Both the position numbers and the translations under genes were made by a program. The notes beneath the pieces were generated by a model. The model was not told the DNA's origin. It searched no databases and saw only the letters and a program-made list of their open reading frames with translations. A DNA stretch of 4,142 bases from IMG/VR virus record IMGVR_UViG_2547132415_000009, positions 1-4,142 of that record; one strand, given 5' to 3'. Source of the DNA: a virus (Duplodnaviria > Heunggongvirae > Uroviricota > Caudoviricetes). Shown piece after piece: positions 484 to 4,021 of this stretch (positions are counted from its first letter, which is position 1; each line of letters begins with the position of its first letter).

Positions 484-524
484 TAAGTGATATTGGTTGT
501 CTGGAGATTCAGGGGGCCAGTCTA
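484..524 (-). repeat. IS2 left terminal inverted repeat (IRL, about 41 bp) at the element/prophage boundary
   Basis: The terminal TAGACTGG... motif ends exactly at 524. The adjacent left-end region (441-500) contains the palindromes ACTAGT...ACTAGT and TCACTTAAATAAGTGA typical of the IS2 left end. The exact inner boundary of the IR is approximate. Confidence 0.8.
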
Positions 525-1268
525 AACGCCGATCTCACACGTAACCAGTAAAGGAAAACTAGTTCTCCAATTTAGCTCGCCAATTACAGGCATTCGCTCA
601 CTACAGCTTATCCAACTATCCGGAGTTACCGGATAGTTGCGCATTGCGACCTTTAATGCCTCATAGAAGCAACCTTTCAGATTGTTGAACTGACGCCCAT
701 TAAGAGGACCGTGTTCAGTAAGCATGTTGCGTAATTTCCATGCCGCGTCGTTTACTTCGTTGGATGACAGGGGAGGCAACTTGTAAGTTTGGCTTACAGG
801 TTCGGCACCATGAAGCATGGCGCCGCTCCGCTCTATGCCATCCAGCGCGATTCGCAGTGCCTGAATTGTGGTAGAGCTATCGTTTGGGGCTATTCCATAT
901 CGCTCGAATACAGCTAAATGGTTGCGCATAATCTCAGGCGTAAGCTCTTTGTAAGCATAAGCAAGAGGCTCTGATGCATTATCCGGCACAACCGACGCAG
1001 GCGCGGCAGCATAAACAGGAATAACGTCAGCTTGCTCTTTATTGCTTTCATCCGTTAAAGCCCAGAATAATTTCCCGGCCGGATGTTTGAAAATATAAGC
1101 AACTGGATCTGCTTCCAGCGATGCCAGTGCAATTTTAAATGCGGTAAGTATGTTGTTAACCACACCTATTTCGAATGCTATTTCACTACATACAAACGAT
1201 TTATCGTCTATTATCGACTCAATTCCGGTAATCGTGTTCTGTAACCATTCTTTGGTAAGAGTATTCAT
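522..1268 (-). CDS. Hypothetical prophage accessory protein, 248 aa as read; 3' end truncated by the IS2 insertion (stop codon supplied by the IS2 terminus)
   Basis: Long ORF with ATG at 1268, 2 nt after the stop of the upstream 63-aa ORF. The final codons GGC GTT TAG use 522-524, which are the terminal TAG... nucleotides of IS2, so the native C-terminus is missing. No family recognised with confidence. Confidence 0.6.
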   Translation of the reverse strand: MNTLTKEWLQNTITGIESIIDDKSFVCSEIAFEIGVVNNILTAFKIALASLEADPVAYIFKHPAGKLFWALTDESNKEQADVIPVYAAAPASVVPDNASEPLAYAYKELTPEIMRNHLAVFERYGIAPNDSSTTIQALRIALDGIERSGAMLHGAEPVSQTYKLPPLSSNEVNDAAWKLRNMLTEHGPLNGRQFNNLKGCFYEALKVAMRNYPVTPDSWISCSERMPVIGELNWRTSFPLLVTCEIGV

Positions 1269-1270
1269 AA

Positions 1271-1462
1271 CTATTTCACTTTAATCTCAATATTTCGCAG
1301 CTTTAGCTCTACTGGCAGGTCTGACTTTCCTGTTAACGCTAATGCGAGATTTTCAGGAGTAATGAGAGCAGTTATTGTTTTCCCTATTGCCAGACGAATA
1401 ATCATTCGTATCTCGCGATCGTCACATGCTCCCGGTCGAACAATTGATATTTGTCCGATCAT
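1271..1462 (-). CDS. Hypothetical small protein, 63 aa (MIGQISIVRPGACDDREIRMIIRLAIGKTITALITPENLALALTGKSDLPVELKLRNIEIKVK)
   Basis: ATG at 1462 is preceded by AAAGGAGAG (GGAG 6 nt upstream), and that Shine-Dalgarno overlaps the TGA stop of the upstream 217-aa ORF. The ORF-track start at 1492 looks like a spurious extension. No homology recognised. Confidence 0.5.
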   Translation of the reverse strand: MIGQISIVRPGACDDREIRMIIRLAIGKTITALITPENLALALTGKSDLPVELKLRNIEIKVK

Positions 1463-1463
1463 C

Positions 1464-2117
1464 TCACTCTCCTTTGATGCGAATGCCAGCAAGCCAGTTT
1501 CTTATGCCGATATATTCAGCGTTCCTGAAACCGCTTTTTACATATATAAATGGCAAGCGAAGATTGTGACCATTGGCTGCCAGGTAGTCTTTACAACCCT
1601 GTTCGGTGAAACAGCAGGTAACGAATTCATCAATATCTTTCACAGCAACGCGCCGCCATTTTTCTGGTGGTTCCCGAAAGTTTTCATGAAGTAGTTCGAG
1701 ACGACGACTTTGGAGTTTATTGGCTTCATTGCTATCTTCATCAACCCAGACAATCCGGTCATAGTCATAATCAGCATCAACAACAATTTCGCGCTTTTGA
1801 TACACACAAAACATAGGGTCTGACGTTATTCGATTATCCTGTGTTCGAATGTTTTCACCGATGATGCCAAACGAATCTGGCGTAGGTTTTGTCTGTAACT
1901 CTTCGATACGTTCAGCCAGCGCCGCGCACTTGGCCTCAAGGTTATCAATCGTGATTCCAGCAGAACGACACTCCCGCAACGCCGTTTCCAGTTTTGATTC
2001 AAGTTCACCGAACTTACGGACAAGATATTCAGCGTTTGTTTCGTTAACCTTTAAATCTCGTGGGATGCATTTACCTTTCAGAAATCCATCCATCTCAATT
2101 AGTGACATTTGTTTCAT
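1464..2117 (-). CDS. Hypothetical protein, 217 aa; predicted coiled-coil N-terminal half and acidic, Cys-containing C-terminal half
   Basis: Longest unassigned ORF. The ATG at 2117 overlaps the TGA stop of the upstream 54-aa ORF (ATGA) and has GGAG 9 nt upstream. The ORF-track start at 2135 is a GTG with no Shine-Dalgarno. The helical heptad-like stretch [44 protein letters not shown] is judged by eye. Confidence 0.6.
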
Positions 2118-2278
2118 TTCTTCCCACTCCGCCACATCGCATTCAGATATTTGTTTTGATTCACTGACGGAAAAGAATTTCTCTTAAGCAATTCCTCTCT
2201 CGATGGCATTGGCTTTACGCGTTGGCGAATAATCATTTCTGCCGGAAGAATGCCGGGATTGTATGCAAGTCCTCTCAT
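2114..2278 (-). CDS. Hypothetical small basic protein, 54 aa ([54 protein letters not shown])
   Basis: ATG at 2278 has a strong Shine-Dalgarno (TGAGGAA, 6-nt spacer) that overlaps the TGA stop of the upstream 97-aa ORF. Its own stop overlaps the start of the 217-aa ORF. The ORF track shows a longer 104-aa form from 2428, which would overlap the 97-aa gene out of frame; I prefer the short form. Confidence 0.45.
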
Positions 2279-2288
2279 GGTAAATTCC

Positions 2289-2582
2289 TCAGTCATTACT
2301 GATAGCGCCATAACGTGAGCGGTAATTACGCAGGCGCGGGTCAATTTCAGGGAAGTGGGTATATGTGGCTTTGCGGAATGGTCGGATTGATGTCTGGTAA
2401 ATTCGCTCGCGTTCTTCTTTCTCTGCAAGCCATATACAGTGGCGAAATTCCTTTTCCTCTTTCGTTTCCTGCGGTAGAGACATTATTCGGTCGTAGTTTT
2501 TTCTGAATTTATCCAGCACCTCCGATACGGAATTGCCGGAACAGCGGCGCGGGTCATCCGCACCATACAGAGGCGCTGGCAT
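2289..2582 (-). CDS. Hypothetical highly charged protein, 97 aa
   Basis: ATG at 2582 is preceded by TAAGGAT (AAGGA, 7-nt spacer) in the 23-nt gap after the SSB-like gene. Translation [63 protein letters not shown]... No homology recognised. Confidence 0.55.
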
Positions 2583-2605
2583 AATTAAATCCTTATTTTT
2601 CTAAA

Positions 2606-2989
2606 TCAGAATGGGATGGAATCGTCGTATACAGGAGTGTTCTGCTGGTTACTACTTTGCTGCTGCGGGCCATTTCCTGAAGCTGCAAATCCAATCTTTG
2701 CATTCAGTAATTCAAGAGTGATTGATTGACCATTTTGCCCCTGATAAACATCAACCCTGATGTTTTCTCCGGTAATTTCCACAATGCCACCTTCAGCAAG
2801 AACACTACGGTAGTAATCCGCTTGCGCTCCCGGCTTGGCAAATACAACGGCGCTGTAGTTTGTCCATTCTTTCTTTTTTGTCTGGCGATCGTAATACTGA
2901 ACGCCAGCACGGATGTTGAATCCGATATTTTCCCCGGCCTGAAACTCTCTTGCGGGCTTGTTTAGTCTTACAGTAATCGAATGTGCCAT
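2606..2989 (-). CDS. Phage single-stranded-DNA-binding-like protein (lambda Ea10-like), 127 aa, with acidic C-terminal tip ...VYDDSIPF
   Basis: The C-terminus ends in DDSIPF, closely resembling the conserved SSB C-terminal protein-interaction tip (DDDIPF). The start ATG overlaps the erf stop (TAATG at 2987-2991). The ORF-track N-terminal extension to 3079 runs inside erf and is rejected. The Ea10 family assignment is from memory. Confidence 0.65.
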   Translation of the reverse strand: MAHSITVRLNKPAREFQAGENIGFNIRAGVQYYDRQTKKKEWTNYSAVVFAKPGAQADYYRSVLAEGGIVEITGENIRVDVYQGQNGQSITLELLNAKIGFAASGNGPQQQSSNQQNTPVYDDSIPF

Positions 2990-3594
2990 TAAGCGGCCGC
3001 CCCTTCTAATTCGTCTCGTCTGATGTTGTAAACGTCCTGCGCTTTGTGCTGCTCCGGTGTGCCTTCGAGCATCTTCCACGCTTTGGCGAACGCCTGTTTA
3101 AGCTCTTCCACGGTGTTTTTCTGCAATGCTGCGTCAGTGAATGCTTTTAGAACCTGTTCAGGTGTAGGTGATGGTTTTGATTGCTTTGCTGCTGCGTTCT
3201 GCTGATGTTTATGCTCGTCGGTATCTGCATCTTTCGCATCATCAATGCCGAACAAACCATTGAGGCAATACTTGCGTGCATAAGAGCTTGTAGCTCCAGT
3301 AACTTGTGCAGAATCCATTCCTTTCTTGCTTTCTTCCTCTCGTGCAAGAGCGGTTGCCGTATGACTGTTTTCGCCATCGGTAATAGTTGCCGTGGCTTTC
3401 ACGTAATACCGATCACCAATCAACACAACTTCATCGCTGATTGATAAAAACAGGCCATTCAGTAACGGCTTAACGCCTTCAAGAATGTCTTCGCAGCTTC
3501 TGTATTTATATTTGCCGAATGAGTTGTACTGATTCTTTGGCGCGTTCAGATTCTCCTGAATAGCTGCCAGTCTTGCGTAAAATTCTTTGCTCAT
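2989..3594 (-). CDS. erf: Erf-family single-strand annealing protein (essential recombination function, P22 Erf-like), 201 aa
   Basis: Translation MSKEFYARLAAIQENLNAPKNQYNSFGKYKYRSCEDILEGVKPLLNGLFLSISDEVVLIGDRYYVKATATITDGENSH...ATSSYARKYCLNGLFGIDDAKDADT matches the P22 Erf N-terminal domain as I recall it. The start is placed at the ATG at 3594 (MSKEF...); the ORF-track start at 3624 is a TTG extension. Confidence 0.85.
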   Translation of the reverse strand: MSKEFYARLAAIQENLNAPKNQYNSFGKYKYRSCEDILEGVKPLLNGLFLSISDEVVLIGDRYYVKATATITDGENSHTATALAREEESKKGMDSAQVTGATSSYARKYCLNGLFGIDDAKDADTDEHKHQQNAAAKQSKPSPTPEQVLKAFTDAALQKNTVEELKQAFAKAWKMLEGTPEQHKAQDVYNIRRDELEGAAA

Positions 3595-3683
3595 ATGTTT
3601 GTTCTCAGAATGGACATGGCCCAAGGAAATAACGCTGATTTAATACTTCAGTCTTTGCCGCATTTAAAAATACGCGAACACCT

Positions 3684-3854
3684 TCACGATCTCCCTTCTG
3701 GCGATACATTAACGCCTGCTGCGTGTACATGCGTCTCTGTAACTTGCTCTCCTTCACTGTGGTTGCAAGTGACATGCATATCTCCTTCGTTACCGATTAA
3801 TTCTTTCATCTGACGAATGAATTCTTCGTCTGACCAGTTATCTGTAAAACTCAT
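3684..3854 (-). CDS. Hypothetical small acidic protein, 56 aa, with a His/Cys cluster (MHVTCNHSEGEQVTETHVH); sits where kil/arf lie in P22
   Basis: ATG at 3854 overlaps the TGA stop of the cIII-like ORF (ATGA), with AAGG 6 nt upstream. The ORF-track start at 3884 is a TTG extension. No confident homology. Confidence 0.45.
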   Translation of the reverse strand: MSFTDNWSDEEFIRQMKELIGNEGDMHVTCNHSEGEQVTETHVHAAGVNVSPEGRS

Positions 3855-4021
3855 GGACGGCCTTGTTGTTTCAAAATATCCCAAAGCTTTTCGAGCAAAC
3901 TTTTCATTCTTGGTTGTTTAAAGTCTGCTCCGGTTAAAATATTTTTTCGTGAATGCTGTACCGATAAAATCGGGTTGAAAGGGCGAACCGATGCCGCCCC
4001 TGCAATAGCGAACTGTTGCAT
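3851..4021 (-). CDS. cIII-like small regulator, 56 aa (MQQFAIAGAASVRPFNPILSVQHSRKNILTGADFKQPRMKSLLEKLWDILKQQGRP); putative FtsH-inhibitor family
   Basis: Not in the supplied ORF track; found by hand translation. Strong Shine-Dalgarno AAGGAG with a 6-nt spacer before the ATG at 4021. The N-terminal MQ-FAIAG and C-terminal KLWDILKQQGRP resemble lambda CIII (MQYAIAG... KRLIDILNQPGVP) as I remember it, and the length is similar. Confidence 0.5.
   Translation of the reverse strand: MQQFAIAGAASVRPFNPILSVQHSRKNILTGADFKQPRMKSLLEKLWDILKQQGRP

Follow-up and report, generated by a model that had tools for sequence, protein, structure and literature searches.

The charged 97-residue protein of an HK97-type Erf-SSB recombination module is, by homology, the anti-RecBCD protein Abc2

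What is the small charged protein that this phage-derived DNA encodes directly after its Erf/SSB pair, and is it directed at the RecBCD enzyme of the host? The original prediction had placed a gene for a 97-aa protein, rich in Lys, Arg and Glu and with a good Shine-Dalgarno sequence, at 2289-2582 of the window (the whole stretch of 4,142 nucleotides that was analysed), where P22 carries abc1/abc2. It recognised no resemblance to Abc1, Abc2 or Gam, and considered the protein a plausible functional analogue of these, i.e. a partner of Erf that would redirect or inhibit RecBCD.

The gene at 2289-2582 and the identity of its product

On reading the window sequence, we found an ORF at exactly these coordinates, on the minus strand (which had been left unstated), with an ATG start, a TGA stop and a length of 97 aa.

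2289..2582, minus strand: abc2 (anti-RecBCD protein 2); identified from PF11043, phrog_656, PDB 8B1T_A, identity counts, contact residues and dN/dS
2590..2595 (read as 2595-2590), minus strand: Shine-Dalgarno sequence TAAGGA, 7 nt 5' of the abc2 ATG; read from the sequence

The Shine-Dalgarno sequence was thus as good as had been described, and the composition of the protein (K6, R13, E10 and D6, or 36 % charged) agreed with the reported richness in Lys, Arg and Glu, for which residues 41-63 had been quoted. The ORF is also the first gene after the Erf/SSB pair, as had been stated: erf lies at 2989-3594 and an SSB-like gene at 2606-2989, and the ORF starts 23 nt past the stop of the latter. 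From its own stop to the start of the next gene, a DUF2737 gene, there are 10 nt.

The 97-aa protein matched the Pfam family PF11043, 'Bacteriophage P22, anti-RecBCD protein 2', with E = 6.1e-64 and 212.7 bits (the gathering score of the family is 25), and the alignment placed residues 1-97 of the protein on positions 1-97 of the 97 in the profile. PHROG 656 ('abc2 anti-RecBCD') gave E = 2.6e-55 over profile positions 1-98 of 98, and a sequence search of the PDB returned a single chain, 8B1T_A/8B1U 'Anti-RecBCD protein 2' (E = 2.2e-58, gapless, 1-97 to 1-97). When 50,697 phage records were searched by tblastn, 225 records matched the protein, including P22 abc2 (93.8 % identity) and HK97 'abc2: Gp39' (95.9 %); 'abc2 anti-RecBCD' was also found in ST64T, ST160 and mEp043.

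We also counted identities directly. In gapless alignments the protein was identical to P22 Abc2 (GenBank AF217253), itself of 97 aa, at 91/97 positions, to HK97 gp39 at 93/97 and to the protein of phage PhiR12_2_star at 97/97. Identity to HK75 gp30 'anti-RecBCD protein 2' was 95/97, and to the Abc2 chain of the RecBCD-Abc2 cryo-EM structures 8B1T/8B1U it was 89/97, again without gaps. The window protein therefore differs from P22 Abc2 at six to eight positions. Besides L32R, these changes are mostly in the C-terminal third, which has no order in the structure; the eight that are seen against the structure chain are L32R, A65S, K76H, I78P, D86N, A92G, G93A and N97D. At residues 92-93, PDB 8B1T chain A reads AG where GenBank AF217253 (locus L001, 2501-2794) reads GA, and the Abc2 proteins of the window, HK97 and ST104 side with GenBank.

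The earlier statement that the protein does not resemble Abc2 was wrong, because 91/97 of its residues are identical to P22 Abc2 and it matches PF11043 over its full length. The family to which it is assigned is not an unrelated one; it is the anti-RecBCD family itself. On these sequence comparisons the 97-aa protein is Abc2 itself, and not an unknown analogue. The idea of a RecBCD-directed partner of Erf survived as far as function is concerned, while the premise of an unrelated protein or a new analogue did not, since the protein is a 94 %-identical orthologue of P22 Abc2; as judged by homology, the functional guess was right only because the gene is the known abc2. The ORF is very probably abc2, carried by a lambdoid E. 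coli prophage that resembles HK97, and its product would act as P22 Abc2 does.

An NCBIfam scan of the 97-aa protein and its neighbours recognised IS2 TnpA alone, with no family for Abc2, Erf, SSB or DUF2737. This blank is uninformative, and does not contradict the Pfam assignment. A tblastn search with P22 Abc1 against all six frames of the window gave a best E of 0.9, over 16 residues.

The differences between abc2 and its relatives were mainly at third codon positions. The dN/dS values (Nei-Gojobori) were 0.18 against HK97, 0.13 against P22 and 0.27 against the 68 %-identical ST104 allele, and the comparison with PhiR12_2_star gave 5 synonymous and 0 non-synonymous differences. The abc2 ORF is a real gene under purifying selection.

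Two overlapping ORFs were considered as alternatives and rejected, on the basis of the third-position excess and the low dN/dS in the abc2 frame. One was a plus-strand ORF at 2315-2506 (63 aa), where the substitutions relative to relatives obey the abc2 frame. The other was a TTG-initiated minus-strand ORF at 2114-2428 (104 aa), where the substitutions again follow the abc2 frame and the ATG at 2278 is the point from which DUF2737 is matched.

The recombination module around abc2

The genes of the window from about 520 to 4020 are all on the minus strand. In the direction of transcription, the module reads as follows.

3851..4021, minus strand: cIII-like gene, head of the module; phrog_550 'CIII' (E = 1e-22), in the cIII position as in P22, HK97 and HK75
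3684..3854, minus strand: homologue of HK75 Gp33, 56 aa, in the kil/arf region upstream of erf; 55/56 identical to HK75_33; phrog_2123
3605..3775, minus strand: second 56-aa ORF (HK97 gp42 type); phrog_1723 (E = 4.5e-34), with its own AAGGAG upstream
2989..3594, minus strand: erf, single-strand annealing protein, 201 aa; PF04404 ERF (E = 2e-44); 99.5 % to HK97 Erf, 74.6 % to P22 Erf
2606..2989, minus strand: HK97 gp40-type SSB ('SSB-1b'), 127 aa; 93.7 % to HK97 gp40; phrog_44 'single strand DNA binding protein' (E = 5e-27); C-terminal DDSIPF tail
2289..2582, minus strand: abc2, as above
2114..2278, minus strand: DUF2737 gene (HK97 gp38, P22 ORF56), 54 aa; PF10930 (E = 2.6e-31); 94 % to HK97 gp38, 75 % to P22 ORF56
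from 2117 downward, minus strand: Ea22-like gene; first 93 residues 81 % to HK97 gp37

The module was typed by tblastn of the P22 and HK97 early-left proteins against the window, together with annotated records. The order of the genes (cIII, small ORFs, erf, gp40-type SSB, abc2, gp38 of the DUF2737 family) is that of HK97, where erf, gp40, abc2 and gp38 follow each other with the same spacings. Upstream of erf, HK97 has one 83-aa gp42.1, whereas a pair of overlapping 56-aa ORFs is present in the window, as in HK75 and HK022. The window also departs from HK97 in its Ea22-like gene, which is only partly related to gp37, and in the IS2 element that interrupts the operon further on. The HK75 order of cIII, (kil), gp33, recombinase, SSB, abc2 and a gp38-like gene is shared as well, and both Abc2 and Gp33 are nearly identical between the two. 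The genes in the intervening slots differ in length, which is how they were compared: the recombinase-slot gene of HK75 ('phage recombination-related protein') has 708 nt as against 606 nt for the window erf, and its SSB-slot gene 507 nt as against 384 nt.

In P22, as in the window, abc2 lies in the early-left operon downstream of erf, and the ORF56/DUF2737 gene follows 10 nt on. However, erf and abc2 are separated by abc1 in P22, where kil and arf precede erf. The proposed correspondence to the abc1/abc2 position of P22 thus held for abc2, where the ORF56 homologue follows with the same spacing, and failed for abc1. As judged from gene order, abc2 occupies its customary position, and the slot of abc1 is taken by the SSB gene. 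We looked for homologues of P22 abc1, arf and kil in all frames of the window, and none was significant.

The erf stop overlaps the start of the SSB gene by 1 nt, and the minus strand shows no terminator-like site from erf to the end of abc2. The tight packing and overlap of the genes, along with the lack of such a site, are consistent with co-transcription, and abc2 is probably transcribed with cIII, erf and the phage SSB gene from the early-left operon. Among the window ORFs scanned with Pfam and PHROG there was no lambda-Exo-type nuclease, which fits the published view that phages with Abc2 rely on the RecBCD nuclease. The number of Chi sites was 0 on either strand, in a stretch of 4 kb that is too short for this count to be meaningful.

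The SSB-like protein had no Pfam or NCBIfam match, and the best match in a PDB sequence search was at chance level (E = 0.43). A weak BLASTP match to an annotated phage SSB was seen (E = 0.002). The SSB nature of the protein rests on PHROG 44, the host-like DDSIPF tail, this weak BLASTP match and the published fold class of HK97 gp40. The latter, named 'SSB-1b', has been described as SSB-like in its predicted structure and diverged almost beyond recognition in its sequence (Casjens, Smith and colleagues, Genome Res 2025, PMC12315714). Our observations on the window protein agree with this description, since the Pfam, NCBIfam and PDB searches were blank, yet PHROG 44 and the DDSIPF tail were found.

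Upstream of erf, the 56-aa ORF at 3684-3854 (MSFTDNWSDEEFIRQ...), i.e. the Gp33 homologue, belongs to a PHROG family that carries the label 'recombinase', without evident basis. The second ORF, at 3605-3775, overlaps it by 92 nt in a different frame, and its protein is 100 % identical in HK75, HK022, H-19B, mEp235 and others. Of the single 83-aa gp42.1 annotated in HK97, the first 43 residues resemble the upstream ORF and the rest resembles ORF 3605-3775 (at 58 %). The two 56-aa ORFs could be two overlapping genes, or they could stand in a frameshift/fusion relationship.

On the other side of abc2, the Ea22-like gene had been listed as a 223-aa GTG ORF at 1464-2135 (minus strand). The ATG at 2117 is the likelier start, and overlaps the DUF2737 stop by 4 nt, as in the HK97 gp38/gp37 pair. 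Past its N-terminal 93 residues the Ea22-like protein matches another PHROG (3205), which makes it a mosaic. For a further TTG ORF of 73 aa, at 1271-1492, the phrog_1222 match begins only at residue 11, and the ATG at 1462 is the probable start.

The IS2 copy and the state of the prophage

An IS2 copy occupies the left end of the window, from 1 to about 525, with TnpA/InsC at 68-436 (NF006928, E = 3e-83), and thousands of E. coli IS2 copies match the window up to position 524-526. The IS2 terminus (the reverse complement of 497-525, TAGACTGGCCCCCTGAATCTCCAGACAAC) provides the TAG stop of a DUF551 gene at 522-1268 on the minus strand. This gene encodes 248 aa in the window and 295 aa in its uninterrupted homologue in E. 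coli JX2, which indicates that the IS2 insertion truncated it. The insertion lies 1.8 kb downstream of abc2, in the same operon. The prophage may be defective through the IS2 insertion, with abc2 not inactivated thereby. In any complete E. coli genome of the collection, at most 68 % of the window was found in one place, and the element is therefore a mosaic.

The truncated DUF551 gene and the mosaic make-up would also be expected if the prophage were decaying and abc2, though intact in appearance, were a relic of no functional relevance that is neither expressed nor used any more. We regard this as quite improbable. The ORF, the start codon and the Shine-Dalgarno sequence of abc2 are all intact, and PhiR12_2_star, an isolated phage, encodes the identical protein, the two genes differing by synonymous changes only. 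Moreover, the IS2 copy is downstream of abc2 in the direction of transcription, and so cannot be polar on it.

Predicted action of Abc2 on RecBCD

Reading the gene as a functional abc2, we compared its product with the published structure. Wilkinson et al. (2022, eLife 11:e83409, PMC9836394) give, in Figure 4-source data 1, the residues through which Abc2 is joined to RecC by hydrogen bonds or salt bridges. All of these contacts (A3, R13, C14, S15, G16, Y30, I33, M34, L36, E39, K41, K44, E45, R47 and H48; 15/15) were identical in the window Abc2. Pro68 of P22 Abc2, which has been modelled in the active site of host PpiB (PMC9836394), was also unchanged, and the IRPFRK motif with P68 was kept in the window protein and in 6/6 aligned relatives. 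The only substitution inside the ordered RecC-binding part was L32R, between the contacts Y30 and I33. This change is probably tolerated, because the family as a whole varies at position 32 (L, R, A, M). The other substitutions lie from residue 65 onward, in or adjoining the disordered part of the structure.

In a small conservation alignment that reaches down to a 34 %-identical homologue, the most conserved parts of Abc2 were the N-terminal MPxPL..GAD.PR.CS motif, P68 and the C-terminal GAIxND. Residues 67-97 are disordered in the cryo-EM structure, yet they are among the best-conserved parts of the protein (IRPFRKAT..., ending in GAIxND). This suggests that the disordered C-terminal third has some conserved function.

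P22 Abc2 docks on E. coli RecC at its Chi-recognition ('inactivated helicase') domains, near the latch helix and the proposed exit channel for the recombinogenic single-strand loop, and it recruits host PpiB (PMC9836394). RecC binding and an abolished Chi response are attributed to P22 Abc2 in passages of PMC9836394 that cite Murphy 2000 and Murphy & Lewis 1993. The RecBCD used for the structure was that of E. coli (PMC9836394), which is also the host species in which the window gene occurs. From this published work on P22 Abc2, we infer that the window Abc2 would likewise bind RecC and cause a loss of the Chi response.

By analogy with P22, the window Abc2 would bind the Chi-recognition domains through its N-terminal helical part (about residues 3-52), and would offer Pro68 to the host prolyl isomerase PpiB. 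RecBCD would be left on but made unresponsive to Chi, and the normal hand-over to RecA would be prevented. Unwinding and 5'-resection by RecBCD would then yield single-stranded DNA for the phage Erf (and SSB), and the phage genome would escape Chi-less degradation. Phages with Abc2 are without their own exonuclease, and the model for them is that RecBCD is hijacked to make ssDNA for Erf and not for RecA (PMC9836394). The hand-over to Erf is a model in the P22 Abc2 literature, and not a demonstrated step. In vitro, isolated RecBCD was not substantially affected by P22 Abc2 (PMC9836394). The later steps of the hijack model (blocked RecA loading, Erf loading) stay hypothetical. Since P22 Abc1 and Arf are absent here, whatever steps depend on them in P22 would here take another course or be lacking.

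Lambda Gam (PF06064) and T7 gp5.9 are, like Abc2, small RecBCD-directed phage proteins that are encoded beside a recombinase. They block the DNA-binding site of RecBCD and inhibit all its activities, and the window protein could be supposed to be a complete inhibitor of this kind: some of its homologues are named 'RecBCD nuclease inhibitor' or 'inhibitor of RecBCD nuclease' in databases, and the older literature groups Abc2 with RecBCD inhibitors. However, neither Gam nor gp5.9 has a sequence relationship to Abc2, and at E <= 0.1 PF11043 was the sole Pfam family for the 97-aa protein, with no match to the Gam profile. Unlike these inhibitors, Abc2 attaches to RecC, and the helicase and nuclease of the enzyme stay active (PMC9836394); in the parts of that paper that deal with isolated RecBCD, its activities were not substantially affected by P22 Abc2, but were inhibited by gp5.9. 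OLD is a sensor that responds to RecBCD inhibitors, and when the HK75 recombination locus was tested gene by gene, the OLD trigger that was named was Gp33, not the 98 %-identical Abc2 (bioRxiv 10.64898/2026.07.10.737580). Action in the manner of Gam is for these reasons highly improbable. A new charged protein unrelated to Abc1, Abc2 and Gam, acting on RecBCD by a mechanism of its own, would have in its favour only the position after erf/SSB and the charged composition, and it has next to no probability left, being already refuted by the comparisons that gave a full-length, gapless P22 Abc2 orthologue, 92-94 % identical, with every published RecC-contact residue conserved.

With the 97-aa protein taken as Abc2, any less-understood RecBCD-directed protein in the window, if one exists, is the Gp33 homologue. 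HK75 Gp33 is reported to be sufficient to trigger the P2 OLD abortive-infection nuclease/toxicity in a July 2026 preprint, and is proposed there to be a new RecBCD inhibitor or manipulator (bioRxiv 10.64898/2026.07.10.737580). One could imagine that in HK97/HK75-type modules Abc2 works without Abc1 and Arf and is partnered by the divergent, DDSIPF-tailed SSB and by Gp33, so that two RecBCD-directed proteins divide the labour; we consider this proposal rather unlikely. If it were true, the Abc2-SSB-Gp33 module would be an E. coli-adapted form of the P22 hijack. The proposal bears on the module, and leaves the identity of the 97-aa protein untouched.

The abc2 gene of the window is already known. 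The GenBank record of HK97 names the gene abc2, 'similar to Bacteriophage P22 Abc2', and an earlier survey of lambdoid phages and prophages from E. coli and Salmonella had used PF11043 to look for Abc2 (Bobay et al. 2013, PMC3784561). We found the 294-nt gene in 1098/5426 complete E. coli genomes, almost always on the chromosome, where RefSeq annotates it as 'phage anti-RecBCD protein'. Nothing new is thus left in the claim that had been made for this locus. As a means by which phages counter RecBCD it is textbook material: the structure of its product has been solved, and about one-fifth of the complete E. coli genomes carry it with a routine annotation. The value of the result lies in the correction it brings: abc2 is the proper label for the 'unknown charged protein', and the window is to be taken as a recombination module of the HK97 type, with Erf, SSB and Abc2.
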